Below are positions 18,841 to 53,021 of a DNA stretch of 64,000 nt, in pieces (position 1 is the stretch's first letter; each line of letters opens with the position of its first letter). Source of the DNA: an uncultured virus (IMG/VR IMGVR_UViG_3300037088_000332) (Duplodnaviria; Heunggongvirae; Uroviricota; Caudoviricetes); IMG/VR virus record IMGVR_UViG_3300037088_000332, one strand, 5' to 3'. The notes under the pieces were generated by a model. It saw only the letters and a list, made by a program, of their open reading frames with translations, made no database searches and was not told where the DNA came from. The translations under genes and the position numbers were made by a program.

Positions 18841-19664
18841 TATTCTCCTTCTGACTGCCGGTCTCTTCACCCGGCATGAGTCAGGGACGCCATAAAATCC
18901 TCCTTTTGTTCTAATAACCCCCACTTTGTTCCAGACTGAGATACGGGGGCACTACTTTGCACCGGCCACCGTCTTCTTGGCAGCCTTGCGGGCGGCGGAC
19001 TTGAGGGCATTGGTGGACTCCCTCTGAACTAGGGGAACGAAAGTCCGATTGCCAGTCGGCTTTCCCTCGGCGTTCTTTTCGTCCGCCATACTGCCGACGA
19101 GGACCAGTGCAACAGCACCGCCTCTCCACGGCTTGCGTCGGTAGACCTTGTCATCCATCTCAATTGTGTCCTGCGGCATCGGTACCGGCATCATATCCTC
19201 CACGCGATTGTTCTGTGATTTCTATTTCTAGTTTTCCAGGTAATTGAGTTGTTTATTCCACTCACGTAAACAGTCCGTCCAGTCGCTTTCGTCGGACTTG
19301 TCAAGGTTAAACAGCGTAATCTCTCCGTAGATGCTCTCTGATTCGCATGTTCCGACTATGCCAATGCGATGTGCCTCACATAGTGCCCGCAAATCTGCCA
19401 CGAATCTCTTACGTCGCTCCAGACTGACCATCTTAGCCTACCATGCGCCCGTTTCGGGACGACCCTTCGTCCAGGTTTTGGAGACGGGGTACTGGACCAC
19501 CCGTCCTCCGGGATAAACCTTGTACAACCATTCGGGGCGGTCAGCTATCTGTGTCCAGACGATGCGACCGAGGCTTTCCGCATACCCCTTGGCGTCGTTC
19601 AGAGAGGCTACGACCCTAACATTGTTCTTGTCGCAATCAAGCAGCATATTGTATTCCTTGGAAA

Positions 19665-19741
19665 TGGTACCCCCGGAGAGATTTGAACTCCCGACCTTAC
19701 GGGTAGAAACCGTCTGCTCTTGTCCGCTGAGCTACGGGGGC
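19665..19741 (-). tRNA. tRNA-Arg(TCT)
   Basis: GCCCCCG/CGGGGGT acceptor, loop TTTCTAC, TTCAAAT T-loop, CCA. Confidence 0.9.
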
Positions 19742-19914
19742 ATAATTTGATGGGGCTAAGACCTACGGTTAGCTGGCTCCCGGCTTGACATCGGAGAACT
19801 AAGCGCCATAGCCAGTAGTCAGCCTCTCCGATGTTCAACCCCAAACTTGGTGGGGGTGACCAGGCGACAGGTGCGGCAAAGTCATCTGGGCGTTTGAACC
19901 CTGCCCCCATATGT

Positions 19915-20004
19915 TGGTACCCCCGGCAGGACTCGAACCTGCGATGCCTTTCGGCATAGACAGTTCAGGAAACTGTTGCGATATCCATCTCCGCTCACGG
20001 GGGC
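19915..20004 (-). tRNA. tRNA-Arg(CCT) with atypical long variable arm
   Basis: ACAGT-TTCCTGA-ACTGT; variable hairpin ATGCC-GAAA-GGCAT; CCA. Confidence 0.85.
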
Positions 20005-20039
20005 AAAAATCTGCCGGGCGGTTGCCCGTCCGGACTTGG

Positions 20040-20588
20040 TTATTCCTTGTCAATCTCCACGTTCCAGTATAGATATGGGGCGTAGTCCGACCATTCTTCC
20101 CTTATCTTGTTGATGTGAAGCTTGAAATTGAAGCGAGGGTCAGTCGGCTTGGGGGTATAAGGCCTACTGATAAGCCTCATTCCCGCCTGTTCCGGTGTTT
20201 TGCCACCCTTCTCCTTGTTGCATTTCTGGCACGCAATCGCTAAGTTTGGCCAGTCGGACTTTCCCCCCTGGCACAAAGGGGTAACGTGGTCAATAGTGTA
20301 CTCGTGTGTCTTGGTTATCCGTCCGCAGTACTGGCACGAGGCGTTGTCCCGGACCAAGAGATTTCGCCGTGTGCATGGGACGGACTGCTTCTTGCGCCGA
20401 GTCCAGGCATTTTTTACGACGATTATTCTCGGCATCTTCATTTCAAAGTTGGGGCTGTGAAGCACACGACCAGCTTCGTCTTCCTTGACAATCTGGGCAC
20501 GTCCCTCCCACCAGAGCTTGACTGCGTTCTGGTAATCGCAAAACCCAACCGGTTTCCAATACATATCTAAAACTAAGCAATCCTGCAT
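20040..20588 (-). CDS. HNH endonuclease
   Basis: RRNLLVRDNASCQYCG..TIDHVTP..GG..NLAIACQKCNKEKG. Confidence 0.92.
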   Translation of the reverse strand: MQDCLVLDMYWKPVGFCDYQNAVKLWWEGRAQIVKEDEAGRVLHSPNFEMKMPRIIVVKNAWTRRKKQSVPCTRRNLLVRDNASCQYCGRITKTHEYTIDHVTPLCQGGKSDWPNLAIACQKCNKEKGGKTPEQAGMRLISRPYTPKPTDPRFNFKLHINKIREEWSDYAPYLYWNVEIDKE

Positions 20589-20699
20589 GTTAGTCTATGT
20601 TCCCCTTCCCAACCATCTGTGAGGAGCCCTAATAATGCTTCAAGAAAAACTAATTTTCTGATTGAGCCTTTGTGTATCCAGAAACGACCAATAATCAAA

Positions 20700-21097
20700 A
20701 ACCGCCCGCTGCCACGGTTGAGAGGACTCAACGACGCCTTCAACTTCAGAGCTACCTAGCTACCTAGCTGCTTCGCTGCATTGCTCGTGCCCAGAGAAGG
20801 CAATTAGGGCCAGCGTATAGCAGTCAACTTACGCCCGTAAGGACTAGGCAGTGGGGGGAACCTAAAATCTTAGAGCGGAGGTAGCTGGTCTTGGTCCCTG
20901 TCTAAAGGGCAGGTTCTTGGCCAGCCTCATTTCCCTACACCACACGGGTTGATACAGCAGGGTATGTTGATGGTGTCTCACCCCCGCCGCTGCGTTATCC
21001 TAACGCTCCCCCCCGCTCATCCCACTCCTGTGGCCACGCCCTTTAGGCATCGCCGTGTTGAAAGGATAAGCCCACGGCTTAGGCACAACAGGAGCAG
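20700..21097 (-). ncRNA. putative structured ncRNA region (2-3 domains)
   Basis: Downstream of the 21101 promoter motif; long-range stems GCTCCTGT/ACAGGAGT, GAGCGGGGG/CCTCCGCTC, CCCACTGCC/GGCAGCGGG; no credible ORF. Confidence 0.5.
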
Positions 21098-21230
21098 CAC
21101 TTATATAATACATCGGAAAACTGGGAAATTTGAACTTATTTTGAAGCGGTGAGTCCGAGTAGCCTTGTTGGCACCGCTCCGCTCCGCAAGGCTCAAAAGA
21201 TGGGAAGCGGTAAAAACCATCTACCCCGGA

Positions 21231-21449
21231 CTAAGGAGTGATACTTATAATCTCGGAGATTGGATGGAGAAGTAGGACCCCATCGTGCTTTATCGCAAGG
21301 TGCTTGAATCCGTCAAACTCCGTAAACTCGGCTTCACCTTCAGGAAGGCTGTCCCATATCTTCTTGTCCACCACTACGACTTTTGGGATGATGGGATGCC
21401 TTGAGACTTCTTCAAATGCACTTGAAAGGTCCAGCATTACGCTCTCCAC
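21231..21449 (-). CDS. hypothetical protein
   Basis: 72-aa ORF after tRNA-Trp. Confidence 0.55.
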   Translation of the reverse strand: MESVMLDLSSAFEEVSRHPIIPKVVVVDKKIWDSLPEGEAEFTEFDGFKHLAIKHDGVLLLHPISEIISITP

Positions 21450-21454
21450 TGATT

Positions 21455-21529
21455 TGGCAGGGGTGGAGAGATTCGAACTCCCACTGCAGCGTTTTGGAGA
21501 CGCGCCGACTGCCGTTATCTTACACCCCT
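21455..21529 (-). tRNA. tRNA-Trp(CCA)
   Basis: AGGGGTG/CACCCCT, GCGT-CTCCAAA-ACGC, GCCA end. Confidence 0.9.
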
Positions 21530-22044
21530 GAATTTTTGTTCCTATGCCTCCACGGTTTTGAGGTCGGTTGCTGTGTATGACAATGTGGACATAGAAACCT
21601 TAAATTTTCTGACCGGTCATCATACAGTAAACCATTGCGATGGTCTACATGTAGAACAAGTGGTTTTTTATTCCAGATGGGACCTTGACCACAAAGTTCA
21701 CATTTATACTCACGACCGATGTCTATTAGGCAACGCCTTAGTCTATGAGCCTGCTGCCGTGGTTCTGAGGGGTCTCTGAGCACCAATCGTTTATCTGGAG
21801 GAACCCTTTCCGTACCACCTTTATGATTCAGTCCTTTATTATACCCGCACCCCAAAAAATGAGAAGTGTCTATTTTGTGTCTTTTCAATAATCTTCCAAC
21901 ATAAGCATTACTGGTTTTACTTGCGCCAAGAAGTAAAGTCACATTGGTTATGGTTTTAGATACCTTGGCACATCTACTCAAATCTTCGTAAATATATCCC
22001 ATACTTATGGTTTGAGTAGTTGGTTTATAAACCACTGTCGCCAT
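21520..22044 (-). CDS. HNH homing endonuclease
   Basis: CELCG..WNKKPLVLHVDHRNG..DDRSENLRFLCPHCH. Confidence 0.9.
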   Translation of the reverse strand: MATVVYKPTTQTISMGYIYEDLSRCAKVSKTITNVTLLLGASKTSNAYVGRLLKRHKIDTSHFLGCGYNKGLNHKGGTERVPPDKRLVLRDPSEPRQQAHRLRRCLIDIGREYKCELCGQGPIWNKKPLVLHVDHRNGLLYDDRSENLRFLCPHCHTQQPTSKPWRHRNKNSGV

Positions 22045-22067
22045 CTTATGGTGATATTATAACTTTC

Positions 22068-22502
22068 GCTGGCGTCCTATCCGATAAACGAAGACCACGA
22101 CCGAGGGTACCATGGTTACCACGGTCACTGCTACCATTATGGCTACGCAGCACATGCGGTCTTGCGGGAGTCGAACCCACATTACCAGCCTGCCAGCGCT
22201 CTACCAACTGAGCTACGAGTCCCTTGTGGACCCGGAGGATTCGAACCCCATCTCTGGCTGTCTTAATGAGAGCGGAGAGCCTTGCTCAATCAACGCTCCA
22301 GATACGGACAGTGTCCTGAACCACTAGACGAATGCTCACAGCCAGCTACCATTAAGGCTATGCTGGCTCTTCGTGGCCACGAAGCACAGAGCATGCTGGA
22401 TTTGAACCAGCGTTCCCATCCTACTTAACGGCGGGGTCTTGGCTGATTAGATGACCGAGGAGCTAGGCTCCCCGATGGGGATTCGAACCCCAGTTTCCCG
22501 CC
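22068..22502 (-). ncRNA. RNA of four tandem circularly permuted tRNA-like modules
   Basis: Each module runs T arm -> acceptor hairpin -> D arm, closed by an anticodon-stem-like helix. Confidence 0.75.
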
Positions 22503-22507
22503 TGACT

Positions 22508-22586
22508 TGGTCCCAGCGAATGGCATCAAACCACCGACCTCCTTCCAGCCGAAGCGGAAGGTGCTCTTTAGCTGAGCTACGCCGGG
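22508..22586 (-). ncRNA. tRNA-like RNA with cUUCGg-capped anticodon arm (copy 1)
   Basis: CCCGGCG/CGCTGGG acceptor, ACCA end, CCTTCC-GC-TTCG-GC-T-GGAAGG. Confidence 0.8.
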
Positions 22587-22593
22587 ACAAACT

Positions 22594-22670
22594 TGGTTCC
22601 GAGGGCTGGGGTCGAACCAACAGTCTCACCGGTTCAGAGCCGGGGATTTTACCAGTTAAACTACCTCGGA
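22594..22670 (-). tRNA. tRNA-Gln(CTG)
   Basis: TCCGAGG/CCTCGGA, CCGG-CTCTGAA-CCGG, CCA. Confidence 0.88.
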
Positions 22671-22790
22671 ACAATCTTTGCAGAGGGATGATGCAACAGG
22701 TTTCTCAATGCCGTTGGCATCGGCTCCCGGAATTCACAACCTGCCTCTGCACCAGTCGTGAACCCAATCGGGACCTGAAGCTATCAATCT

Positions 22791-22869
22791 TGGTCCAGGC
22801 GAAAGGAATTGAACCCCCGACCTCCTCCCAGCCGAAGCGGAAGGTGCTCTTTCTCTGAGCTACGCCTGG
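22791..22869 (-). ncRNA. tRNA-like RNA with cUUCGg-capped anticodon arm (copy 2)
   Basis: CCAGGCG/CGCCTGG, ACCA, CCTTCC-GC-TTCG-GC-T-GGGAGG. Confidence 0.8.
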
Positions 22870-22876
22870 ACAAACT

Positions 22877-22955
22877 TGGAGCCGGTGAATGGCATCGAAC
22901 CATCGACCCCCCTCTACCCGAAGGAGAAGGTGCTCTCTAGCTGAGCTACACCGGC
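22877..22955 (-). ncRNA. tRNA-like RNA with cUUCGg-capped anticodon arm (copy 3)
   Basis: GCCGGTG/CACCGGC, TCCA, CCTTCT-CC-TTCG-GG-T-AGAGGG. Confidence 0.8.
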
Positions 22956-22962
22956 ACAAACT

Positions 22963-23036
22963 TGGTCTGGGCACTGAGAATCGAACTCAGGTCTTATGCT
23001 CCCGAAGCATAGGCTAGACCTTCCAGCTATGCCCAG
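22963..23036 (-). tRNA. tRNA-Pro(CGG)
   Basis: TATGC-TTCGGGA-GCATA; C1:G72, A73, CCA. Confidence 0.9.
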
Positions 23037-23042
23037 TAAAAA

Positions 23043-23116
23043 TGGTCGGGGTGCTCGGAATTGAACCGAGGTCTTATGCTCCCAAAGCATAGGCTTGACC
23101 GTCCAGCAACACCCCG
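23043..23116 (-). tRNA. tRNA-Pro(TGG)
   Basis: TATGC-TTTGGGA-GCATA; CCA. Confidence 0.9.
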
Positions 23117-23126
23117 TTCTAAATTT

Positions 23127-23205
23127 TGGTCAGGGCACCCGGATTCGGACCGGGGAAACCTCTTGCACCCCAAGCAAGCGCTCTACCAGGCTGAGCTATG
23201 CCCTG
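23127..23205 (-). tRNA. tRNA-Pro(GGG)
   Basis: CTTGC-TTGGGGT-GCAAG; CCA. Confidence 0.88.
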
Positions 23206-23508
23206 ACAAATACTTTGAAGGCTCATCGGTTAAAACCGATGAATTGCCATATGTTTGGCGGAGAAGCTACTCGTAGCTAGCGGGTACGAGTCAATTCATC
23301 TCCTTCAGCAATCAGCACCTCACTCGCAATAGCGGCGGGTGTTTCAGTGCTCACCTTCAAACTTGGCGGTAGGCAGAAGGAGGGTCACTCCTTGGAGCGG
23401 CACGGGGATTGTGCCCCGACGCCCCACACACGCAAACTGGTTAGCCTCGCCAGCCCAGTGTGCTCCTACCATAACCCAGACTTTCAAATGCTTGGATAGA
23501 GGAACACA

Positions 23509-24195
23509 ATGCAAACTATTGATACTACCGCAAGCATTAAGCTACTGAACAAAATCCATGCTGCCAAGTTGGGTGGAAAAGCCACAGGGGTAATTTCTCG
23601 GCGACTGGCGGTTGAAGCGAAAGAACGATATAACTCCAACCCCAACCACTGTATCACTTGTAACATCCCTATCTTGGCTTCTGATAATCCAAAAATCAAA
23701 CTACAGCAGACTCAGAGAAAAAAGCACTGCTCTCATTCTTGTGCCGCCAAACACCGAAAAGGCTTGACCGCTCCTCGATTGTGCCATCACTGCAATAAGA
23801 CCCCTGTGTTAAAGGATAGAATTGTGTGTGATGTGTGCAAAATTCTTCATACTAAGCCTGCGTGGTTTGGCATATTAGCCAACCTAAGCAAGGAGAGTGT
23901 TTTTTCTCGTTGCAAAAACTGGCAGTCGGCTAGAACCGTAATTCGTCAACACGCCGCTTATATCTACGCCTTATCCAACCAGCCGAAAATATGTAAAGTT
24001 TGCGGCTATTCAACCCACGTTGAGGTATGTCATATACAGGCTGTTAGCAGCTTTCTCCACTCTACTCTGATTAGTGAGATAAACAATGGCACTAATCTTG
24101 TTGCCCTTTGCCGTAACCACCATTGGGAGCTTGACCACGGCATTCTTAAATTGGTACCAGGAGTGGGGGTTGAACCCACGACTTCTTCGTTATGA
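23509..24195 (+). CDS. HNH endonuclease, antisense to the tRNA array
   Basis: CKVCGYSTHVEVCHI...NLVALCRNHHWELD; SD GAGGA. Confidence 0.88.
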   Translation: MQTIDTTASIKLLNKIHAAKLGGKATGVISRRLAVEAKERYNSNPNHCITCNIPILASDNPKIKLQQTQRKKHCSHSCAAKHRKGLTAPRLCHHCNKTPVLKDRIVCDVCKILHTKPAWFGILANLSKESVFSRCKNWQSARTVIRQHAAYIYALSNQPKICKVCGYSTHVEVCHIQAVSSFLHSTLISEINNGTNLVALCRNHHWELDHGILKLVPGVGVEPTTSSL

Positions 24196-24228
24196 GCGAA
24201 GCGTTCTCCCACGCTGAACTACCCTGGC
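24152..24228 (-). tRNA. tRNA-Met or Ile2 (CAT)
   Basis: CTTCG-CTCATAA-CGAAG; CCA. Confidence 0.88.
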
Positions 24229-24430
24229 ACAAAACTTGGGTACGTGGTGTTCGGGAGCCATGGTGGTTGCGCACGCTGCACCATGGGTATGTTGCCCGGC
24301 AATCACGCCGCCCGGACAATGGCCTTTATGGGCGCTCACGTACCTGCTTGAAGCATGAGGATGGGTTCGAACCACCGACCCCCCGGAATCCGGTTGCTCT
24401 TCCTAGCTGAGCTATTCAATGCTTCTAATG

Positions 24431-24509
24431 TTGCGGGGGTGGGAATCGGACCCACTTTGCTTTCGCTGGAGCTTATGAGACTCCCGAACGCCCGGTGTTC
24501 TTCCCCGCG
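24431..24509 (-). tRNA. initiator-like tRNA-Met(CAT), atypical
   Basis: C1xA72 mismatch (CGCGGGG/CCCCGCA), GGAGT-CTCATAA-GCTCC, GC-GAAA-GC variable hairpin, no encoded CCA. Confidence 0.7.
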
Positions 24510-24671
24510 TCAAACTTTCTTCTCTTTCGTCATCGCCGCAAGCTTGGTTGCTTGGGTCAGGGTAGCCCAGCGCATCTGCATCAATCGCTTTGTGCCATAC
24601 CATCCCCAATACTCCATCGGGATGATTTTTCCCCACACCCATTTATCAAGCCATACATAAATCTTGGACAT
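24510..24671 (-). CDS. small hypothetical protein (53 aa, MSKIYVWLDKWVWGKIIP...)
   Basis: Hand-translated; below the ORF-track cutoff. Confidence 0.5.
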   Translation of the reverse strand: MSKIYVWLDKWVWGKIIPMEYWGWYGTKRLMQMRWATLTQATKLAAMTKEKKV

Positions 24672-24942
24672 TAGCCAACTGTTCCTTCTCTAATACCCGA
24701 GTCTTGGCATTTTCATGGAACCTAACTCGGCTGCGAACAAACTTTTTAGCGCCTCGGATGTTCTTGGCCACACCGTGTTTGCCGTCCGTCTGGTCATGGG
24801 TACTGGCTCCTGCTGTTACCACCATATCAGCCAATACTGACCTAGCAGTAAAATGCTTGGTCCCTTTGCCGTATCCGTTGCGACCGGGTCCGACATACGC
24901 CGTCATTTGTTCTTTAAATCCTCGTTGATGATTCGTTTTCAT
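24646..24942 (-). CDS. hypothetical protein
   Basis: MKTNHQRGF... starts right after tRNA-Phe. Confidence 0.65.
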   Translation of the reverse strand: MKTNHQRGFKEQMTAYVGPGRNGYGKGTKHFTARSVLADMVVTAGASTHDQTDGKHGVAKNIRGAKKFVRSRVRFHENAKTRVLEKEQLANVQDLCMA

Positions 24943-25798
24943 AAAATTTGGTGGCCAGGACTGGATTTGAACCAGCAACGCCTACCTCTTCAGGGTAGCG
25001 CTCTACCATTGGAGCTACCTGACCACAATCTATAAAATTCACAACTGACAACACTTTTTTTGAAGTTCGTGCCATCGGTATCCATGACCCAAATAGCCCC
25101 TTACTGCTCATTTCTTTAAGAGTCGGCACAAGGTAAATCCATGCATCATATGGCATGTCCCGGCGAAGATAATTACATCGAATACAGGCTGGGTTGACGT
25201 TGTCTTTAGTGTGCCCTTTCGTGTTGTCAATGCGGTCGAGAGTCATCCTAAGCTCTTTTTCTCCACAATAAACACAGCCATTCAAAAAGGCCAATGTAAT
25301 GAATTCTTTATTCAAATCATTATTGTATCCACGTTTTTTATCAGATTGACGACAGTCTTTGAGTACAGTCATCGGCAATCTATTTGGGTCTTGTCTGTAT
25401 TTCCGATTGTAGGAGTTTATAAGCTCCCGATTAGCCTTTCCTTTTTTAAATCGCTTTCTGTATTCTCGGTTGCAAATGTGACAAATATGTCGTTTATATT
25501 GTCTTCCATTCACCCTACGTTTATGAAAGTGAACTTCTGGTTCTGTTTTTCCACAATCATTGCAGCGGTGTTTTCCAAACGATGGGTCATTTTTAATGTA
25601 CGCTGCATCCTTAGCCGCCTGCACATTAAGGCGATGACGAATTGAATTTTTTACATACCAGGCTTCTTGAAACTCCTTTTTACAGGGTTTACATAAAGAA
25701 GCAAATCCATCTTTCTTGGTTTTGTTTCTGTCAAAATTTCTAGATGTAAGCTCCAGTTCTTTTTTGCATTTGTGACATTGTTTAAACTTTGAATCCAT
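24914..25798 (-). CDS. HNH endonuclease with N-terminal Zn-ribbon repeats; 3' end runs through tRNA-Phe
   Basis: CVYCG..MTLDRIDNTKGHTKDNVNPACIRCN; multiple CxxC. Confidence 0.88.
   Translation of the reverse strand: MDSKFKQCHKCKKELELTSRNFDRNKTKKDGFASLCKPCKKEFQEAWYVKNSIRHRLNVQAAKDAAYIKNDPSFGKHRCNDCGKTEPEVHFHKRRVNGRQYKRHICHICNREYRKRFKKGKANRELINSYNRKYRQDPNRLPMTVLKDCRQSDKKRGYNNDLNKEFITLAFLNGCVYCGEKELRMTLDRIDNTKGHTKDNVNPACIRCNYLRRDMPYDAWIYLVPTLKEMSSKGLFGSWIPMARTSKKVLSVVNFIDCGQVAPMVERYPEEVGVAGSNPVLATKFYENESSTRI
24949..25024 (-). tRNA. tRNA-Phe(GAA)
   Basis: CTACC-CTGAAGA-GGTAG; CCA. Confidence 0.9.
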
Positions 25799-25865
25799 CT
25801 CTTAACCCCTTAACTAAATACTGATAATTAAGTTTTTAGTTAAGGGTTGATGCTTTTTGATATTT

Positions 25866-25944
25866 TGGTGGAATCGGCGGATTGGGTGCCCGCAACTTTC
25901 GGCTTAAGAGGCCGCTACGCTTAACCCTTTTGCGTCACGATTCC
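25866..25944 (-). tRNA. tRNA-Lys(CTT), aberrant T-loop
   Basis: GGAATCG/CGATTCC; CGGC-CTCTTAA-GCCG; T-loop lacks TTC. Confidence 0.75.
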
Positions 25945-25962
25945 AAACTTAGTTCTAAATTT

Positions 25963-26039
25963 TGGTACCCCCGATGGGAATTGAACCCACATTTATGTCC
26001 GCTTAAAAGGCGGCTGCATTGCCGGTCTGCCACGGGGGC
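25963..26039 (-). tRNA. tRNA-Lys(TTT)
   Basis: CCGC-CTTTTAA-GCGG; CCA. Confidence 0.88.
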
Positions 26040-26046
26040 TAAATTT

Positions 26047-26132
26047 TGGCTCCGAGGGAGGGAATCGAACCCCCACTAGGCTTGCGCCAGTCTGGTTAAC
26101 AGCCAGATGCCATACCTTTAGGCGACCTCGGA
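26047..26132 (-). tRNA. tRNA-Asn(GTT) with atypical long variable arm
   Basis: TCTGG-CTGTTAA-CCAGA; GGC-GCAA-GCC variable hairpin; G73, CCA. Confidence 0.87.
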
Positions 26133-26175
26133 ACAATCTTTAATGCTGCTTTAAATATGGCAGCAAGTTTAAATA

Positions 26176-26254
26176 TGGTACCCCCGGAGAGATTTGAACT
26201 CCCGCCCGTTCGCTTCGAAGGCGACCGCTCTGTTCCAGGCTGAGCTACAGGGGC
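26176..26254 (-). tRNA. tRNA-Arg(TCG)
   Basis: TCGC-CTTCGAA-GCGA; CCA. Confidence 0.88.
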
Positions 26255-26283
26255 ACATTTTTTACTGTCCACTCCTTCAAACT

Positions 26284-26358
26284 TGGTACCCCCAAGAGGA
26301 ATCGAACCCCTGTCTCATCGTTCGTAGCGATGTGCGTTCTCCACTACACTATGAGGGC
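26284..26358 (-). tRNA. tRNA-Arg(ACG)
   Basis: CATCG-CTACGAA-CGATG; CCA. Confidence 0.9.
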
Positions 26359-26439
26359 ACAATTTTCCGGCGTGGGTCGCCTATTCTAAGTCCGGGGATT
26401 GGATACCCACACCCTAGAGGTACAGACCCACGCCAAACT

Positions 26440-26514
26440 TGGTAGTCCCGCTCGGGGTCGAACCGAGATTTTAGCCTTCGGAGGGCTACGCCCTATCCAT
26501 TGGACGACGGAACC
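26440..26514 (-). tRNA. tRNA-Arg(CCG)
   Basis: TAGCC-CTCCGAA-GGCTA; CCA. Confidence 0.9.
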
Positions 26515-26549
26515 ATAAACTCGTGGGAGGAGTTTCCCTCCTCCCCGCA

Positions 26550-26618
26550 GGGAGCCTTCTTCCTCTTGAACTACAGCCTTGGTTTGGCTGGCGGGTCTCG
26601 ATTCCCGCATTGTCTCCC
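26550..26618 (-). ncRNA. single circularly permuted tRNA-like module
   Basis: GGGAG..GCGGG-AATCGAGA-CCCGC, CAGCC/GGCTG hairpin, TA-GTTCAAGAGGAAGAAG, CTCCC. Confidence 0.6.
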
Positions 26619-26727
26619 GTGACTTAGTGGCGGTGTCCAGCAGCGTAACATATCGGGTTTCACCGGGTCATGACTCCCGGCTACTTATTAGGTCCCTGCT
26701 CACTCGCTGCCAATCTTCCGCCCATAT

Positions 26728-26802
26728 TGGGGTGACCGGTGGGTGACAATCCCACGACCTCCTGGTTCACAGCCAGGCGCTCTATCGTTGAGCTACGGCC
26801 AC
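26728..26802 (-). tRNA. tRNA-His(GTG), aberrant T-loop
   Basis: CCTGG-CTGTGAA-CCAGG; C73 then CCA; T-loop ATTGTCA. Confidence 0.78.
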
Positions 26803-26882
26803 ACTCTGCGCAACGGTTATCTTCACGTCACGACTTAATCTTGAAATAATCCCAGTTCCTTGACCACCTGTCCCCTTAAACT

Positions 26883-26960
26883 TGGGCGCAAGGGACGGAT
26901 TTAAACCGTCGTCCATCCGGCACCACTGCCGGTGCTCTCTCTACCTGAGCTACCCTACAC
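26883..26960 (-). ncRNA. tRNA-His-like RNA with 4-nt anticodon loop
   Basis: G-1:C73 and CCA; CCGGCA-GTGG-TGCCGG. Confidence 0.65.
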
Positions 26961-27049
26961 ATAAAAATGAAAAGCCCAATCTTAAACTCAGGGCAGGGCT
27001 TATACCTTGATGCCCAATGGGTCTTATAACCTGCTGCCTGCCCTAATCT

Positions 27050-27124
27050 TGGCGGGAGAGGAGGGACTCGAACCCCCGTACTTGGTTTTGGAGACCAAGG
27101 TCCTAGCCGCTAGACGACTCGCCC
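27050..27124 (-). tRNA. tRNA-Trp(CCA)
   Basis: TTGGT-CTCCAAA-ACCAA; GCCA. Confidence 0.9.
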
Positions 27125-27132
27125 GAAAAACT

Positions 27133-27208
27133 TGGGGGGAGGGATGGGACTCGAACCCACAACTACCTGCTCCACAGGCAGGCGTTCTACCATTGAACTA
27201 CCCTTCCC
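27133..27208 (-). tRNA. tRNA-His(GTG)
   Basis: CCTGC-CTGTGGA-GCAGG; G-1:C73, CCA. Confidence 0.9.
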
Positions 27209-27210
27209 AT

Positions 27211-27254
27211 AAAAACGAAAACCCCCACCAGAACTTTCGCTCGATGGGGGTTTC
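27211..27254 (-). terminator. attenuator-type intrinsic terminator before tRNA array 1
   Basis: GAAACCCCCATC-GAGCGAAAGTTC-TGGTGGGGGTTTT-CGTTTTT, ending 2 nt before the first tRNA. Confidence 0.85.
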
Positions 27255-27276
27255 TTTCATTCTGTTTTGCTAGGTC

Positions 27277-27381
27277 TTACCTTGTACAACCCCTTGCTAA
27301 CAGAGCCCCACCGAACCTTGGGCGGCTAAAATTATGCCGCTTAGGCTGCCACTTCATCGGATTTGGTTTCCTGTTTCGCAT
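27277..27381 (-). CDS. putative leader peptide of array 1 (MRNRKPNPMKWQPKRHNFSRPRFGGALLARGCTR)
   Basis: Hand-translated; 22 of the first 23 codons are read by array-1 tRNAs; contains the antiterminator strand 27306-27315. Confidence 0.8.
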   Translation of the reverse strand: MRNRKPNPMKWQPKRHNFSRPRFGGALLARGCTR

Positions 27382-27660
27382 TTGTCTCTCTATGATGCTG
27401 GTAGTGCAGTCAAGGTTTCCTTGTTCCCTCTCAAACTGAGTACTTCTCATCAGGAAACAGTGTTGCCCACAACTAGCCTAGACCTCGGCAACCCGCAGCA
27501 GCGTCTTTTGACCCGCTGTACCCTACCAGCAAACTTGCTGGCGGCAAGTCTGGGTAACTCTTCTTTCCAGCAACTCAAGCCGCCTTAGCTGGCCACCTTA
27601 GTGGTGTCTTTCTCCTACACTCATATAATACCTTCGGTAGTCGTGGTTTTCAGGAAATTT

Positions 27661-27915
27661 TTATTTTACCGGTGCTGCGGGACCCGTTGGACCTGTGGGA
27701 CCCTGAAGCGGATACTCACAGCGTTTAGCTAGCACAAAGCCTTCTGGCGTGGTCTTGAACACATTTCCGCCCGACACTAACAGGGTTCGAGAAATAAGTT
27801 GGGTCTTATATTCGTTGTACCATTTTTCGGCCGCAGCCACGTTGTTGAAGTCTCGTCCTACTCCTGCTAACCCTGCTGGGACAGGTTCGGGAAACTCCCA
27901 GAAAATCGTCGGCAT
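27661..27915 (-). CDS. hypothetical protein with short GPT collagen-like tail
   Basis: SD GGAAGG; QGPTGPTGP. Confidence 0.7.
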   Translation of the reverse strand: MPTIFWEFPEPVPAGLAGVGRDFNNVAAAEKWYNEYKTQLISRTLLVSGGNVFKTTPEGFVLAKRCEYPLQGPTGPTGPAAPVK

Positions 27916-27916
27916 A

Positions 27917-28153
27917 TTACCTTCCAGATCTAAATTTGACTCCTCGATAACTCGTTTGCGTCCCGTCGCTTATACGTCCCTCCCGTGCATGGTACAAGGA
28001 TGTGCCCCTCTTGCACGATTGGCGGAACCAAGCGCACACCGTCTGGTGCAAGACGAAGGTGTTAAGCTCGCAGAACACCATGTAGCAGTACTCGCCCTGG
28101 CAGTGCGGGCAGTACTAGAGGTGGAGGCGGCACTCCTTGCAGCGTCGTCTCAT
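27917..28153 (-). pseudogene. Zn-finger ORF interrupted by an in-frame TAG
   Basis: MRRRCKECRLHL*YCPHCQGEYC..., ATGA-coupled to the upstream gene; TAG at 28115-28117. Confidence 0.5.
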
Positions 28154-28680
28154 CTCAGCCCGGTGAATAGCAAGTTCGGTCCGTCAATTTCTTCCAGTGC
28201 CCGTACTAGAACGGCCGCAACCTTGACAAAGCTATTCAGGGTAGCCCCTTGGTTTTCACATATCCAGTTACTTCTGGCCAGATAGATTCTATTCTCCACC
28301 AATAGCAGATGGGGGGCGGAGAACTTGTACTGGCCAGCCATGCCCTCGGTCCTCCAGCATCTACCATCCTGATAGTCTTGCTCGGCGCTAACAGCCGATA
28401 TAATCTCGTGCTGGGTCATAAAGTGACCGCTTTTGTCAACAATCTCCTCCAGTGCCCGGAAGGCTATGGTCGCCATCTTGGCGATGGTCTTTAAGACACC
28501 GACCTCGTCCTGTGATTTCGTCCACAACGCCCTTGCCTTGGTCGCATATTCCTCCAGCAGGAGCAGGTGGGGAGCGGCGTAGGCATACTGTTTTATGAGC
28601 GGGTGGTTGTCCCGTGGCCATTTCCCGTTCTGGTACTCCCGTTCCTTCTCGATTACCTTGTAGACCGTCCCCCTGTCCAT
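28150..28680 (-). CDS. tandem-duplicated helical domain protein (MazG-like, tentative)
   Basis: Two repeats: E..YQ.G.W...Y...APHLLL.E...AR..W...K.A....RALEEI. Confidence 0.7.
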   Translation of the reverse strand: MDRGTVYKVIEKEREYQNGKWPRDNHPLIKQYAYAAPHLLLLEEYATKARALWTKSQDEVGVLKTIAKMATIAFRALEEIVDKSGHFMTQHEIISAVSAEQDYQDGRCWRTEGMAGQYKFSAPHLLLVENRIYLARSNWICENQGATLNSFVKVAAVLVRALEEIDGPNLLFTGLR

Positions 28681-28691
28681 AGCATTTTTCC

Positions 28692-29153
28692 TCAGTCCAA
28701 GCCGTCAATCGGTCCCGTGGAACCGATGACCATCCACCGGCAGCGCCTCCCCAAGGTAACCTTCTGCCGTTCCTTCATGTTGGGGAAGGTCTCCTTGCGG
28801 TCTTTCTCCATCCATTTCTCCGACAGGGTCTCGCTGGCGTTGACACGCTTGAAGGTCTTGAAGGGAATGTACCGTGCGCCGAAGCTGGAGACATACACCT
28901 TGCCTTTGTGGAAGGTGTAGGCATAGTCGGTGGTGCAGGAGTCCTCCCATGGCCACGGCCAGCCGTCCTTCGGTCGGGTAACGTCGTTCCGGTCGTTCTC
29001 AAAGAACGCCTCTACCCGCTTGCGGTAGGTCTTCTCCGTCTTGGCGGTGAAGATTCTGGGGGCGATGCCCTCGGGGTAGCCGTCCCATGCGATGCTTCCA
29101 ATCCATTCCGCATCGCTTCCCTTGCCGACATAGAAGTCTGCTCTGGTTCCCAT
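28692..29153 (-). CDS. conserved hypothetical phage protein
   Basis: MGTRADFYVG..WIGSIAWDGYPEG..GWPWPWEDS; SD GGAGG. Confidence 0.8.
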   Translation of the reverse strand: MGTRADFYVGKGSDAEWIGSIAWDGYPEGIAPRIFTAKTEKTYRKRVEAFFENDRNDVTRPKDGWPWPWEDSCTTDYAYTFHKGKVYVSSFGARYIPFKTFKRVNASETLSEKWMEKDRKETFPNMKERQKVTLGRRCRWMVIGSTGPIDGLD

Positions 29154-50753: not shown

Positions 50754-50847
50754 TGGCGGAAGGGATGGGACTCGGACCCACATGTCCCGTTCGTCACGGG
50801 AGCGCCTGCTTTCCAGGCAGGTGAGCTACCAGTTGCTCAACCCTTCC
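50754..50847 (-). tRNA. tRNA-Ser(GGA)
   Basis: CCTGC-CTGGAAA-GCAGG, long variable arm. Confidence 0.88.
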
Positions 50848-50852
50848 AAAGA

Positions 50853-50942
50853 TGGCGGATAAAGTAGGATTCGAACCTACGGAGCCCTCTCGGGCTCTCC
50901 GGTTTTCAAGACCGGTGGTTTAAGCCACTCACCCATCTATCC
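50853..50942 (-). tRNA. tRNA-Ser(TGA)
   Basis: CCGGT-CTTGAAA-ACCGG, long variable arm. Confidence 0.92.
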
Positions 50943-51021
50943 GAATAGCCTTGCCTATTCCGTCATCGGTACCTATGAGGAAAGGGCACGGATTGTAAGC
51001 CCGCACCTTTATCGGCAAACT

Positions 51022-51114
51022 TGGCGGAAGCGACCTGATTCGAACAGGTGAACCCCCTTCCGAGGGTCAGCACTTTAGCAAAGTGCTGGGTTAATCCATC
51101 TCCCCCACGCTTCC
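51022..51114 (-). tRNA. tRNA-Ser(GCT)
   Basis: GCACT-TTGCTAA-AGTGC, long variable arm. Confidence 0.9.
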
Positions 51115-51120
51115 GTAACT

Positions 51121-51207
51121 TGGTGCCGCAGGACGGATTCGAACCGTCACTGGATTTCTCCAACCAGTTTTTGAGACTGGCGGGTCTACCGATTCCCCCA
51201 CTGCGGC
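51121..51207 (-). tRNA. tRNA-Leu(CAA)
   Basis: CCAGT-CTCAAAA-ACTGG; A73 CCA. Confidence 0.92.
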
Positions 51208-51214
51208 ATAAACT

Positions 51215-51301
51215 TGGTGCGAGAGGGGGGAGTCAAACCCCCATCTGATTGCTCAGACCAGTTTTTAAAACTGGCGTGTCTGTCGGTTCCACCACTCTCG
51301 C
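51215..51301 (-). tRNA. tRNA-Leu(TAA)
   Basis: CCAGT-TTTAAAA-ACTGG; A73 CCA. Confidence 0.88.
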
Positions 51302-51916
51302 AAGTTCCTTAAGGTTCTTTACGTTCTTACCAGTAAAAGTATCAGTCTGAGTATGACAATTAGGACAAACCTTTCTAAGGTTTTCCCAACGGTTATCGCT
51401 GACAAACCCATTTTTGTGGTCAACTTGTAACCGTAAAAATCTGCCATTCCAAGTGGAACTTTGACCACATATCTCACAAATATGGGGTGTTCGTTTATAG
51501 TAGCGGCTCTTAGCCACCTTCTGATGCTGCGTGGTACCTTTGCAAAAAACTAAAGAATCAGACAATTCTCGTTTCTTTAACCCCGCATCAATCCGAGCAT
51601 CAGTATCTCTCGTTAGTCCCCGACTCCACCCACGCTTCTCTAATCCCACTTTAGAAATTGTCGGTCCCCCATAGACACAATGCATTCTATGGGCACTGAC
51701 AGCCTCTATAGTTCGAAACTTTCGGCTACATTTTTCACATCCATGAGACCAAGGGTTAACTCCTGTTTTTCTACCCTTTAATTTTATTGAGACAGCTTGA
51801 TTTATCTCCTGCCTCTTCTCTTTGGATGAAAAAGAACGAGCGCACTTTGAAGAGCAAAACCTTCCTGAGCCATACGCTCCATCTGTTTGTGTGCCACATA
51901 ACTCACAATTAGCCAT
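51233..51916 (-). CDS. HNH endonuclease; 3' end overlaps tRNA-Leu(TAA)
   Basis: CEICG..WNGRFLRLQVDHKNG..DNRWENLRKVCPNCHTQT; SD AGGAGG. Confidence 0.9.
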   Translation of the reverse strand: MANCELCGTQTDGAYGSGRFCSSKCARSFSSKEKRQEINQAVSIKLKGRKTGVNPWSHGCEKCSRKFRTIEAVSAHRMHCVYGGPTISKVGLEKRGWSRGLTRDTDARIDAGLKKRELSDSLVFCKGTTQHQKVAKSRYYKRTPHICEICGQSSTWNGRFLRLQVDHKNGFVSDNRWENLRKVCPNCHTQTDTFTGKNVKNLKELARVVEPTDTPVLKTGLSNQMGV

Positions 51917-51956
51917 AACTGACCTCCTAACTATGGGTTAGAAAGTCAGTTTGAAC

Positions 51957-52045
51957 TGGTGCGACCGGAGGGACTCGAACCCACACGCCCATTGCTGAGC
52001 CATAGATTCTGAATCTATGTTGTCTACCGATTCCAGCACGGTCGC
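51957..52045 (-). tRNA. tRNA-Leu(CAG)
   Basis: ATAGA-TTCAGAA-TCTAT; long variable arm. Confidence 0.9.
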
Positions 52046-52050
52046 AAATT

Positions 52051-52128
52051 TGGTCCGTAGAGGGGGACTCGAACCCCCAAGCCTTGCGTTCTAAGCGCAA
52101 GAGGTATGCCAATTCCCTTCACCTACGG
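52051..52128 (-). tRNA. tRNA-Leu(TAG) lacking the long variable arm
   Basis: TTGCG-CTTAGAA-CGCAA; 5-nt variable loop; A73 CCA. Confidence 0.85.
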
Positions 52129-52135
52129 ATAATTT

Positions 52136-52219
52136 TGGTGCGGAAGGGGGGACTTGAACCCCCACCCCTTTCGGGACCAGATTCTTAGTCTGGCGAGTCT
52201 GCCATTCCACCACTTCCGC
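52136..52219 (-). tRNA. tRNA-Leu(AAG)
   Basis: CCAGA-CTAAGAA-TCTGG; long variable arm; CCA. Confidence 0.9.
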
Positions 52220-52327
52220 AAACTATTGGCAGCGTCGTGGGACCGGTGACACTTCTGCGGTTGCCCATACGGTTGTTCGTGTGTCCTACCACACGCTGTA
52301 CTCATTTTCGCTGGACACTGCCAAACT

Positions 52328-52406
52328 TGGTGGCACCGGAGGGAGTCGAACCCCCAATTTCTCGGTTTACAACCGAGTGTTCTGCCTGTTGAACTACAAC
52401 GGTCCC
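52328..52406 (-). tRNA. tRNA-Tyr(GTA), atypical short-variable-arm form
   Basis: CTCGG-TTGTAAA-CCGAG; 5-nt acceptor-D linker; CCA. Confidence 0.75.
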
Positions 52407-52420
52407 ACAAACTTAAAACT

Positions 52421-52514
52421 TGGTGGGTGTGGGAGGATTCGAACCCCCAACGTCTGGACAAGCCAAATTCCGGGTTACAGCCGGATGCAGCCAAGCCGTA
52501 TCTGCTTCACACCC
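52421..52514 (-). tRNA. tRNA-Tyr(GTA)
   Basis: CCGG-CTGTAAC-CCGG; long variable arm; CCA. Confidence 0.88.
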
Positions 52515-52693
52515 CAAACTTTTAGCCTCCCAGCCGGTCGGTTCATCACCATAGCAACAGGGGGATTATCCGAGATTAACTCGCCCGCTATTACCAGCCC
52601 TGATATTCGGGGCATCGGGTCTCGCAGCCGAAGCTACGGTGTTTTTCCACCCACTCAAGGGGGTCCACACGGATTGCTAAAACCTACTCCTAC

Positions 52694-52721
52694 AAACAAA
52701 AATGGCGGCTTTTCAGCCGCC
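52694..52721 (-). terminator. attenuator-type intrinsic terminator before tRNA array 2
   Basis: GGCGGC-TGAAAA-GCCGCC-ATTTTTGTTT. Confidence 0.85.
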
Positions 52722-52748
52722 CTCGTCTTGCCCGATTTTTGGGAGGTT

Positions 52749-52838
52749 TTACCCGTCCCATCCCTCGGACAACACGAGGACGCTAAGCAGCGATGAGCTA
52801 CTATAGGATGACAACGAGTTGTTCGATAAGCGATTCAT
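52749..52838 (-). CDS. putative leader peptide of array 2 (MNRLSNNSLSSYSSSSLLSVLVLSEGWDG)
   Basis: SD AAGGAAG; 17 of codons 4-24 are Ser/Leu/Tyr; contains the antiterminator strand 52765-52782; in frame with an upstream ATG at 52943. Confidence 0.82.
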   Translation of the reverse strand: MNRLSNNSLSSYSSSSLLSVLVLSEGWDG

Positions 52839-52990: not shown

Positions 52991-53021
52991 AAATTTTTTA
53001 TGGCCAGCCTCTATACGTGTC

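Follow-up and report, generated by a model that had tools for sequence, protein, structure and literature searches.

The window analysed here, a 64,000-nt stretch of DNA from an uncultured giant phage from peat, carries two tRNA arrays on its minus strand. Array 1 (19665–27207) encodes tRNAs for His, Trp, Arg (five anticodons), Asn, Lys (two), Phe, Met, Pro (three), and Gln (anticodon CUG). Upstream of it lies a promoter-like site (27625–27662; called by the promoter scanner at 27653–27625) with sigma-70-like hexamers CTGAAA and TATTAT separated by a 17-nt spacer. The motif is common to array 2 and the arrays of related phages, and its core also heads arrays in IMG/VR and metagenome contigs. 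It occurs at 27631, 52966, 21111, 13673, and 54363; in total, six matches with at most one mismatch were found vs. 0.62 expected. Two candidates from the first promoter scan (L001 and L002) have no tRNAs alongside and were discarded as chance matches.

The 5′ untranslated leader of array 1 (27382–27620) is followed by a minus-strand ORF (27277–27381; ATG at 27381, stop codon at 27279–27277) situated between the promoter-like site and a strong terminator. This ORF, leader ORF 1, comprises 34 codons plus the stop, with the conceptual peptide MRNRKPNPMKWQPKRHNFSRPRFGGALLARGCTR, and reads exactly as quoted in the earlier note. Purine-rich GAGAGA is localized 4–10 nt ahead of the ATG. An additional in-frame ATG at 27450 would extend the ORF to 57 codons. 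A diverged relative (contigs of runs X8 and X13) lacks a 147-nt stretch of the untranslated region, 27392–27538, but retains 27332–27391 with 4 differences in 60 positions; hence, ATG 27381 rather than 27450 is the likely start, as judged from sequence comparison. This relative is known from contig statistics and a single 22-letter loose end, which, when read in frame, continues Asn-Phe-Arg-Pro-Ser-Tyr-Gly-Gly. A degenerate pattern for the leader 1 peptide had no match in IMG/VR, so the sequence of a leader 1 homologue could not be read.

The front of leader ORF 1 mirrors the array behind it. By standard wobble pairing, the downstream array can decode 22 of the first 23 codons (27313–27381; below, the regulatory codons), the sole exception being AGC, and each of the nine array amino acids (R, N, K, P, M, W, Q, H, F) is represented, both as previously claimed. 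All 15 distinct anticodons reported by ARAGORN in array 1 have a readable codon in the leader, and two AAG codons are cognate to a tRNA at 25869–25944 that has a Lys-CUU anticodon loop and was missed by ARAGORN. Among 24,158 six-frame segments of the window, segment 27381–27313 ranks first with a score of 17.3, the next score being 13.3. None of 20,000 dinucleotide-preserving shuffles reached 22/23 (mean 10.0, maximum 19), the segment borders, both here and for leader 2 below, having been chosen after the data were seen.

The predicted intrinsic terminator (27211–27254, minus strand) consists of a 16-pair stem with one bulge (27254–27218) and a T tract that ends at 27211, the stem being followed by TTTTCGTTTTT. 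Its folding energy is −24.5 kcal/mol (z −5.7), which bears out the U-tailed terminator that had been placed upstream of the first tRNA; a simple terminator scanner did not call it due to the bulge. The distance to this tRNA had been given as 2 nt, and this holds if G-1 of tRNA-His is counted; otherwise, the terminator ends 3 nt before the tRNA, which starts at 27207 according to both ARAGORN and Rfam. Three further segments could take part in alternative pairings. Region 2 (27300–27316), the 5′ strand of a putative antiterminator, directly follows the regulatory codons. Region 3 (27239–27265), its 3′ strand, includes all 13 paired nucleotides of the terminator 5′ arm. Region 1 (27345–27374), a putative anti-antiterminator, is predicted to pair with 14 nucleotides of region 2 before region 3 exists. 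The pairing of 27315–27306 with the terminator 5′ arm, suggested earlier from the sequence, is recovered as the predicted fold once the terminator 3′ arm is omitted: 27316–27306 then forms 11 pairs with the 5′ arm, closing a structure of −28.6 kcal/mol (z −3.9).

The same arrangement is found at the second array of the window. Array 2 (50754–52514, minus strand) contains two Tyr, five Leu, and three Ser tRNAs, with one HNH ORF inside, and is preceded by a promoter-like site (52960–52997) with a motif identical in kind to that of array 1. Leader ORF 2 (52749–52838; 29 codons plus stop, peptide MNRLSNNSLSSYSSSSLLSVLVLSEGWDG) starts at ATG 52838 with AAGGAAG ahead of it and is rich in Ser, Leu, and Tyr codons. 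Its codons 8–24 (52817–52767) contain 15 of 17 from the codon set of array 2, and the leader covers 9/9 anticodons; the segment ranks first of 19,222, and 0 of 20,000 dinucleotide shuffles reach 15/17. The antiterminator of leader 2 (52715–52784; region 2 at 52784–52765, region 3 at 52735–52715, with the stop codon in the inner hairpin) has a predicted energy of −43.1 kcal/mol (z −6.6). The terminator (52692–52721) is formed by a 7-pair GC stem followed by ATTTTTGTTTGT (−15.2 kcal/mol, z −3.2). A 346-aa protein encoded upstream of array 2 has 161 relatives; none of the 80 loci kept has a tRNA within 5 kb, hence this gene-array neighborhood is not conserved.

The closest cultured phage by rIIA is a match of only about 30% identity, a DNA relative of the window was not found in the phage collection, IMG/VR searches with the neighboring proteins at 53022–54062 and 28150–28680 retrieved no relative, and no RNA runs are listed as containing the window DNA. 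The earlier note had proposed a search for covarying leaders in other large phages, and related huge-phage contigs yielded 12 matched leaders from at least 7 related phages, which together with the two in the window makes 14. They include leaders matching arrays of two further types, Val/Gly/Ala/Asp/Glu/Cys (A3) and Ile/Thr/Gln (A4), arrays 1 and 2 of the window being A1 and A2. All 14 leaders rank first or second among six-frame segments at their own locus. When eight leaders were compared with the codon sets of the four arrays, each fitted its own array best, with one tie by raw count. Thus, 23 of 33 codons of the A1 leader belong to its own set vs. 3, 6, and 2 for the other arrays, and 17 of 28 codons of the A2 leader vs. 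5, 6, and 0. The tie involves the A4 leader L021, which has 8/24 codons in both the A4 and A3 sets, the former comprising 8 codons and the latter 18. The leaders of the four arrays cover 15/15, 9/9, 12–13/13, and 5/5 anticodons, respectively.

The content of the leaders changes with that of the arrays. Leader 1 uses CAG and its array encodes Gln-CUG; the Ile/Thr/Gln leaders use mainly CAA, with Gln-UUG in the array. The Trp/His/Lys/Arg/Asn/Gln array of the complete relative G007 also encodes Ala-UGC and has no Pro, Phe, or Met tRNAs; its Trp/His/Lys/Arg leader contains two Ala codons, no Pro, no Phe, and no Met besides the start codon. In contrast, Pro, Phe, and Met are present and Ala is absent in both array 1 of the window and leader 1. 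Some arrays of relatives have no leader. In G007, the Pro/Met and Gln/Thr/Cys arrays are without a convincing leader, and the Ala/Val array has only a weak leader candidate without a terminator. The Tyr/Leu leader of G008 contains Ser codons, whereas the stretch inspected there yielded no tRNA for Ser.

The least probable of the alternatives that we considered, with a very small chance of being correct, is that these ORFs encode independent small peptides or occur by chance in compositionally biased spacers, their match to the arrays being a coincidence. Indeed, leader 1 is strongly basic, as are RNA-binding peptides, and basic and Ser-rich out-of-frame segments exist elsewhere in the window. 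However, the leaders top the more than 19,000 segments of the window and are not reached by any of the 20,000 shuffles, four unrelated peptide compositions each fit their own array, and the pattern recurs in 14 leaders, shifting with the array content. Moreover, the peptide sequence of the leaders is not conserved among distant relatives, and what is conserved is membership in the amino-acid set of the array.

The substitutions are of the coding type. The six differences between L020 and L027 within codons 1–29 are all synonymous and all at third positions. In the Ile/Thr/Gln leaders, changes are either synonymous or lead into or stay within the array set (Val to Ile, Asn to Thr, Gln to Thr). 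A purine run of the GAGA/GGAG type precedes the ATG in 8/8 close-clade leaders. These observations bear on a sensor operating without ribosomes, in which the leader RNA would pair with anticodons of uncharged or mature tRNAs in a T-box-like or sponge-like manner. Such a sensor would account for the presence in the leader of a triplet complementary to nearly every array anticodon, and sensing of tRNAs by codon-anticodon pairing is known from T-box elements. Still, we consider it very unlikely: the triplets share a single reading frame, which opens with an ATG preceded by a purine run and closes with a stop codon at a fixed spacing from the terminator, and the differences among relatives are synonymous third-position changes. 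In addition, no Rfam amino-acid operon leader, T-box, or other regulatory match was found with E up to 1 in 19000–29000 and 52400–53100, or with E up to 10 around leader 1 (27190–27680). Rfam families of terminator-bearing leaders gave only chance-level matches, at 16.6–17.7 bits vs. cut-offs of 44–55.

Terminators are present in 13 of 14 leaders, with predicted energies between −12.7 and −24.5 kcal/mol and with the 5′ arm beginning 22–27 nt after the stop codon. Both the terminator stems and the inner hairpin holding the stop codon have compensating changes among relatives. In G007, the matched Trp/His/Lys/Arg leader (L111) retains alternative pairings and has no U tract. In both G007 and G008, a −10 box abuts the leader ATG, which suggests that these leaders, by their sequence, may be leaderless mRNAs with other kinetics.

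Since equilibrium folding of the full-length leaders with ribosome masks formed the terminator whatever the ribosome position, it does not discriminate, and it was replaced by folding of the RNA as it stands before the 3′ arm. With the 3′ arm omitted, the terminator 5′ arm is predicted to pair with the segment after the regulatory codons with a probability of 0.6–0.86 in the eight close leaders, and in all eight this probability drops to roughly 0.0–0.5 once the ribosome footprint clears the last regulatory codons. Five further leaders demonstrate a similar footprint-dependent loss of the antiterminator pairing. Hence, the comparison of folds with and without a ribosome footprint that had been suggested indicates in silico that the antiterminator is masked once the ribosome passes the regulatory codons. 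Region 2 is always located just 3′ of these codons, which is the layout of stall-induced antitermination.

The earlier expectation that stalling on any hungry codon frees the antiterminator is retained for the early codons only. A ribosome stalled on the last 4–5 regulatory codons is predicted to cover region 2 and so to favor termination; thus, not every hungry codon would give read-through. For leader 1, the distance from region 2 to the stop codon is 21 nt when measured from the end of the region and about 36 nt from its start; a ribosome waiting at the stop would leave region 2 uncovered and only disrupt the inner hairpin. Pairing of regions 1 and 2 is predicted in the A1, A2, and A3 leaders and is weak in the Ile/Thr/Gln leaders; the ribosome-free truncated RNA prefers pairing of regions 2 and 3. 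With the antiterminator as the predicted fold of this RNA, read-through may be the default in the absence of a ribosome.

It is conceivable, but unlikely, that the ORFs are translated with another outcome: ribosome occupancy might set pre-tRNA stability or RNase processing, or else control a reversed, feed-forward read-through. The antiterminator of the ribosome-free truncated RNA, the termination favored by stalls at the last regulatory codons, the missing U tract of L111 in the presence of alternative pairings, and the −10 boxes abutting the ATG in G007 and G008 would all be compatible with it. On the other hand, the canonical hairpin with a U tract at the fixed 22–27 nt after the stop codon in 13/14 leaders and the constant position of region 2 are not what it would predict, and a feed-forward switch would have no need of a codon for every tRNA species.

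We consider it probable that a ribosome-mediated transcription attenuator of the trp/ilv type, with a codon-matched leader, stands in front of each tRNA array of the phage. The ORFs, codon match, terminators, alternative pairings, and conservation are read from sequence, and from them we infer that the ORFs are translated, that the pairings compete kinetically, and which way the response runs. The attenuator with a leader mirroring its array, as it was originally put forward for array 1, gains from the second matched leader, from the 12 leaders in relatives, and from the covariation with array content, as well as from the set-preserving changes, the conserved stop-to-terminator spacing, and the predicted maskable antiterminator. 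A sigma-70-like promoter would start a transcript whose first product is a leader peptide of 24–36 codons. The front of the leader would act as a checklist with roughly one or two codons per tRNA species of the array behind it, and region 2, directly after the checklist, could pair with the 5′ arm of the intrinsic terminator upstream of the first tRNA. With all tested tRNAs charged and in ample supply, the ribosome would reach the stop codon, covering or unwinding region 2, which would let the terminator hairpin form and end transcription. A shortage of any one of these tRNAs would make the ribosome stall early in the checklist, leaving region 2 free to pair with the terminator 5′ arm, and the array would be transcribed. 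As the equilibrium fold of the full-length leader is the terminator, read-through would depend on an assumed kinetic competition; the same is seen in the trp leader, whose full-length equilibrium fold also favors the terminator.

As to the transcription of the array upon stalling, the layout of promoter, leader, and terminator agrees with the earlier proposal, but its extension to the whole of array 1 probably does not hold. This 7.5-kb array is broken by three ORFs for HNH endonucleases, a CyVA-1 RNA, and another promoter-like site at 21111, and it has a terminator-like sequence near 20700; yet the list of leader 1 includes codons for tRNAs located beyond the internal promoter-like site, the terminator-like sequence, and the HNH ORFs. 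Because of these interruptions, a single attenuator probably does not govern all array 1 tRNAs today. The 411-nt stretch following the promoter-like site 21111 folds no better than shuffled sequences (z −0.13).

Since the product of each array, tRNA, is itself the sensed molecule, each array would be under negative feedback by decoding speed. Whether large phages thereby possess an undescribed class of regulators, self-referential sensors of tRNA supply that poll every tRNA of an array codon by codon, turn the array on once any of these tRNAs runs short, hold decoding capacity steady, and answer host tRNA depletion is, in our estimate, an even bet. Such depletion could arise from anticodon-nuclease cleavage or from decay of host tRNAs during takeover; sensing of a defence would be one form of this response. 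The elements described here bear on why phages carry tRNAs and how they control them, and they would connect the arrays with host defences that target tRNA in a way open to experiment. If the attenuator reading is correct, viral tRNA genes would gain their first example of cis-regulatory logic, and leader-peptide attenuation its first case of sensing the operon's own product. It predicts that depletion of any listed tRNA leads to read-through, and that the codon list of a leader identifies the tRNAs that form one regulatory unit. A possible use is a compact synthetic sensor of decoding capacity that covers many codons at once.

A Phe-rich leader might precede a tRNA-Phe gene of E. coli. The excerpts of PMC3082878 do not mention such a leader. 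Full-text literature searches, whose coverage excludes old scans and subscription journals, retrieved no paper that describes tRNA genes controlled by leader-peptide attenuation, in line with the earlier note, which knew of no description of such control for phage tRNA arrays. The general model of leader-peptide attenuation, as given in PMC1183508 and PMC3082878, provides the frame for comparison. In both window leaders, a promoter-like site is followed by a short ORF that, by its sequence, possesses a start codon and a ribosome-binding signal, and the regulatory codons correspond to the tRNAs encoded by the operon (22/23 and 15/17). A terminator separates the leader ORF from the first gene for 13/14 leaders, and in silico the antiterminator and the terminator exclude each other, a stalled ribosome leaving the antiterminator free and an advancing one masking it. 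The classical targets, enzymes of amino-acid biosynthesis or aminoacyl-tRNA synthetases, are not found downstream, where tRNA genes are located instead. Hence, the mechanism fits the family of ribosome-mediated attenuators, and the target lies beyond its described scope.

Among known systems, multivalent attenuators are represented in enterobacteria by the thr leader, which has codons for Thr and Ile, and by that of ilvGMEDA, where the codons are for Leu, Val, and Ile. The phage leaders share with them a short ORF, translated in the enterobacterial case, with codons for several amino acids, a terminator ahead of the genes, and an antiterminator overlapping the terminator 5′ arm, so that the ribosome position would select the pairing. 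Unlike them, the phage leaders precede tRNAs rather than biosynthetic enzymes, and the sensed molecule would be the product; they poll up to 9 amino acids and 15 anticodons, mostly with one or two codons each and without runs of a single codon; and they belong to a viral system with several copies per genome, one per array, and no sequence similarity to the bacterial leaders. The pheST (pheM) attenuator, which governs phenylalanyl-tRNA synthetase, likewise acts on the translation apparatus and reacts to how much charged tRNA is available, but it senses one amino acid, has a protein product, and resides on a bacterial chromosome. T-box riboswitches similarly couple tRNA status to terminator read-through via a competing antiterminator. 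They bind a single uncharged tRNA with no translation involved, and control synthetase, biosynthesis, or transport genes, whereas the phage leaders contain an ORF with start and stop codons, evolve in a coding-type manner, and have no T-box match.

The window encodes rIIA (closest cultured match approximately 30% identical), rIIB, a DNA ligase and several HNH endonucleases, and its source is a large uncultured phage. Twelve studies contributed the 16 public runs that contain its DNA; of these runs, 14 are labelled as peat metagenomes and two carry no organism label. ARAGORN identified 31 tRNA genes in two arrays, all on the minus strand: array 1 (27207 to 19665) encodes His, Trp, Arg, Asn, Lys, Phe, Met, Pro, and Gln tRNAs, and array 2 (52514 to 50754) encodes Tyr, Leu, and Ser tRNAs. 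Further window tRNAs missed by ARAGORN were matched by Rfam, e.g., the gene at 25869–25944 with the anticodon loop of Lys-CUU. Minus-strand ORFs of the HNH or endonuclease VII type (25798–24914, 22044–21520, 20588–20040, and 51916–51233) lie between tRNA genes and are probably homing elements that split up both arrays.

Ahead of array 1 lies the minus-strand ORF 27381–27277 (leader 1), which the earlier note took for an attenuator of the trp/his type with codons mirroring the array. The sequence reads exactly as reported there, and under standard wobble rules 22 of the first 23 codons are read by array 1 anticodons. For each of the 15 distinct anticodons of array 1, leader 1 contains a codon that it can read. 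When every stop-free stretch in six frames of the 64-kb window was scored for enrichment in the codon set of the array, the segment 27381–27313 ranked first of 24,158 (17.3; runner-up 13.3), and in the permutation test none of 20,000 dinucleotide-preserving shuffles reached 22/23 (mean 10.0, maximum 19), these figures being somewhat generous since the borders of the segment were chosen with the data in view. With the in-frame ATG at 27450 as its start, the ORF would have 57 codons. A diverged relative, represented by contigs from two runs, lacks 27392–27538 and retains 27332–27391 with four differences in 60 positions, and hence the start at 27381 is the conserved one. Within the 147 nt missing from this relative, a 36-nt segment of the array 1 5′ leader (27466–27501) has matches, with six differences, in short contigs of greater depth from each of the four runs compared, and may be a repeat common to other DNA of the samples.

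Array 2 is preceded by the same promoter-like motif as array 1, followed by a 29-codon ORF that begins with ATG 52838 and has a good Shine-Dalgarno sequence (leader 2; peptide MNRLSNNSLSSYSSSSLLSVLVLSEGWDG). Among its codons 8–24, 15 of 17 are Ser, Leu, or Tyr codons readable by array 2, and synonymous codons are spread so that 9/9 anticodons of the array are covered. The segment ranked first of 19,222 for the array 2 codon set, and none of 20,000 shuffles equaled it. Chance is no explanation for this arrangement, because two unrelated peptides occupy the same position and neither is outscored anywhere in the 64 kb as a match to the array directly behind it.

The terminator claimed for leader 1 is present (−24.5 kcal/mol, z −5.7), and its tail TTTTCGTTTTT ends at 27211 on the minus strand, leaving 3 nt before the first tRNA; a simple terminator scanner missed it because the stem is bulged. 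The terminator of leader 2 is a GC-rich hairpin with a T tract (52721–52692, minus strand). It is separated from the first tRNA-Tyr by a 178-nt spacer (52515–52692, minus strand); this distance is 0–13 nt at most other leaders.

The complete leader, folded at equilibrium, gives the terminator in every case. This outcome carries little weight, as the fate of an attenuator is settled before its last strand has been synthesized. The RNA folded was hence the one existing before synthesis of the terminator 3′ arm. In all eight close leaders, the terminator 5′ arm then pairs with the segment right after the regulatory codons with a probability of 0.60–0.86. The predicted antiterminator of leader 1 is formed by region 2 (27316–27300) and region 3 (27265–27239; −28.6 kcal/mol, z −3.9), and that of leader 2 spans 52784–52715 (−43.1 kcal/mol, z −6.6), all on the minus strand. 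A ribosome footprint was modeled by placing the A site at a given codon, hiding 13 nt of mRNA ahead of it, and folding the downstream RNA alone. The antiterminator pairing is kept with the A site on early or middle regulatory codons and drops to roughly 0.0–0.5 once the ribosome is past them; five of six leaders from more distant phages behave in the same way, the exception being L111, a leader from contig G007. In these folds, a stall on an early or middle codon leaves the antiterminator free, as the earlier note proposed for any hungry codon, but a ribosome stalled near the end of the codon list would mask region 2. The stop codon of leader 1 lies 21 nt past the end of region 2 and about 36 nt past its start. 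In several leaders, an earlier region 1 is predicted to pair with region 2, more weakly, and the untranslated truncated leader RNA is predicted to prefer the antiterminator.

As modeled, the leader layout is that of stall-induced antitermination; the general model of leader-peptide attenuation is described in PMC1183508 and PMC3082878. A hungry codon would stall the ribosome and cause read-through into the tRNA array, while smooth decoding of the leader would lead to termination. Since the switch controls the same tRNAs that it tests, the circuit would constitute negative feedback on decoding capacity.

Scanning for the promoter core identified relatives on the IMG/VR contigs G001 (104.5 kb), G002 (127.8 kb), and G003 (23 kb) and on five metagenome contigs. 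G001 has in common with the window only the promoter and tRNA-like stretches and lacks rIIA; it is hence another part of the window's genome or of a related one. The related contigs bear two array types absent from the window, one with Val, Gly, Ala, Asp, Glu, and Cys tRNAs and a tmRNA at its end, the other with Ile, Thr, and Gln-UUG tRNAs, and no amino acid of the 20 is missing from the four types combined. In these relatives, every array has its own leader, e.g., MNMATHITLGDIEAVGIAEAAVVCEGGDTSPSGVIG and MLALHISEADVIAAVAAGCEGDTSPSGGAG for Val/Gly/Ala/Asp/Glu/Cys and MMNITMPHTQTQTQIWAGGGACSG with two variants for Ile/Thr/Gln. Every close-clade leader is one of the two top-ranking segments of its locus and fits the codon set of its own array above the other three, except in raw counts for one Ile/Thr/Gln leader (L021), which scores 8/24 for its own set of 8 codons and likewise for the 18-codon Val/Gly/Ala/Asp/Glu/Cys set. 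Even the Gln codon tracks the array: leader 1 has CAG with Gln-CUG, and the Ile/Thr/Gln leaders have mostly CAA with Gln-UUG.

The leaders show signs of being translated. Between two relatives (L020 and L027), all six differences in the first 29 codons are in third positions and synonymous, and changes among the Ile/Thr/Gln leaders are either synonymous or substitutions that enter or stay inside the array's amino-acid set (Val to Ile, Asn to Thr, Gln to Thr), which argues that selection acts on the tRNA asked for and not on the peptide sequence. Unlike the regulatory part, the remainder of each ORF, past those codons, shows nucleotide-level conservation. Compensating changes between relatives were observed in both terminator arms and in a small hairpin with the stop codon in its loop, and in 13 of 14 leaders the terminator 5′ arm starts 22–27 nt past the stop codon. 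In the Val/Gly/Ala array, the first tRNA, Val-UAC, is highly divergent between relatives with near-identical leader peptides (L020, L022, L027); by this comparison, turnover seems to be faster for tRNA genes than for leaders.

A structural-type protein adjoining array 2 has 161 relatives in IMG/VR; no tRNA is nearby at any of the 80 loci kept from these. The contigs bearing them come from phages as large as 463 kb, and in the five contigs searched the number of Rfam tRNA matches reached 69 on a single contig. Arrays of three of these huge phages (G004, G007, and G008) are similarly sorted by amino acid, and a search ahead of them gave six more leaders, five of them followed by a terminator and each the top segment of its own locus. 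These are one of the Val/Gly/Ala type in G004, three in G008, and two in G007, namely, MRHILLSSYLSSSSLLTGSEPMRGSVE ahead of a Tyr/Leu/Ser array and MNSTKRNRSEAKRQWHRA (L111) ahead of a Trp/His/Lys/Arg/Asn/Gln array. The latter array, of the array 1 type, additionally encodes Ala-UGC but no Pro, Phe, or Met tRNA, and its leader contains two Ala codons, no Pro or Phe codons, and Met as the start codon only, the opposite of array 1 and leader 1. Such covariation of leader and array is what the earlier note had proposed to look for. Taken together, the comparative evidence independently supports reading leader 1 as an attenuator. No U tract was found at L111, where alternative pairings are present. 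No convincing leader was found at the G007 Pro/Met and Gln/Thr/Cys arrays, and the G007 Ala/Val array has only a weak candidate; the G008 Tyr/Leu leader has Ser codons, with no Ser tRNA in the array stretch examined. ARAGORN also reported suppressor-type tRNAs in arrays of G007 (L109 2272, anticodon TTA, labelled Stop) and G008 (L116 1886 and 1965, CTA and the four-base anticodon CTAG), which hint at stop-codon reassignment or frameshift decoding.

Sigma-70-like hexamers, CTGAAA and TATTAT separated by 17 nt, precede both window arrays. The motif, AAATTTCC followed after about 20 nt by GTATTATAT, has six matches in the window versus 0.62 expected. Minus-strand sites at 13673, 21111, 27631, 52966, and 54363 include the one heading rIIA (13673), and two other units are headed likewise; the shared motif looks like an early-type promoter of the phage. 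At L113 619–641 (G007) and L116 4146–4168 (G008), the TATTAT box is just 4–7 nt upstream of the leader ATG, and these leader mRNAs may be leaderless or nearly so. Array 1 now holds HNH genes, the second promoter-like site (21111), and terminator-like sequence near 20700; leader 1 probably dates from an ancestral operon that was more compact, or else controls the first block only.

Several other minus-strand features were observed in array 1. A CyVA-1 RNA match (21154–21230; Rfam, 49.7 bits, cut-off 41.4) lies just upstream of the 21111 site. From this site to a hairpin and T run near 20700 extend approximately 410 nt without a long ORF (20688–21098), for which there is no Rfam match, no ARAGORN tmRNA (relatives carry a tmRNA ending another array), and folding no better than shuffles (z −0.13). 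Between Trp and His, a tRNA-like gene (26886–26959) has a 6-nt anticodon loop and the two-base ARAGORN anticodon "tg"; a gene with the same features (L019 1522–1594, minus strand) occupies the place of the second Gln-UUG of relatives. Immediately before the third tRNA-like gene of array 1, TTTTCATTTTTATG (26960–26975) is like the leader 1 terminator tail TTTTCGTTTTTATG before the first tRNA, and may represent either a duplication of this junction or a terminator internal to the array.

By sequence, the element of the window is not a member of any Rfam leader or T-box family. Full-text literature searches, with old scans and subscription journals outside their coverage, gave no account of leader-peptide attenuation of phage or bacterial tRNA genes, and a leader-peptide attenuator of tRNA arrays is apparently undescribed in print. 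The thr and ilv operons are controlled by multivalent leader-peptide attenuators, which the mechanism proposed here resembles; its targets, tRNA genes, are outside the scope described for the leader-peptide attenuator family.
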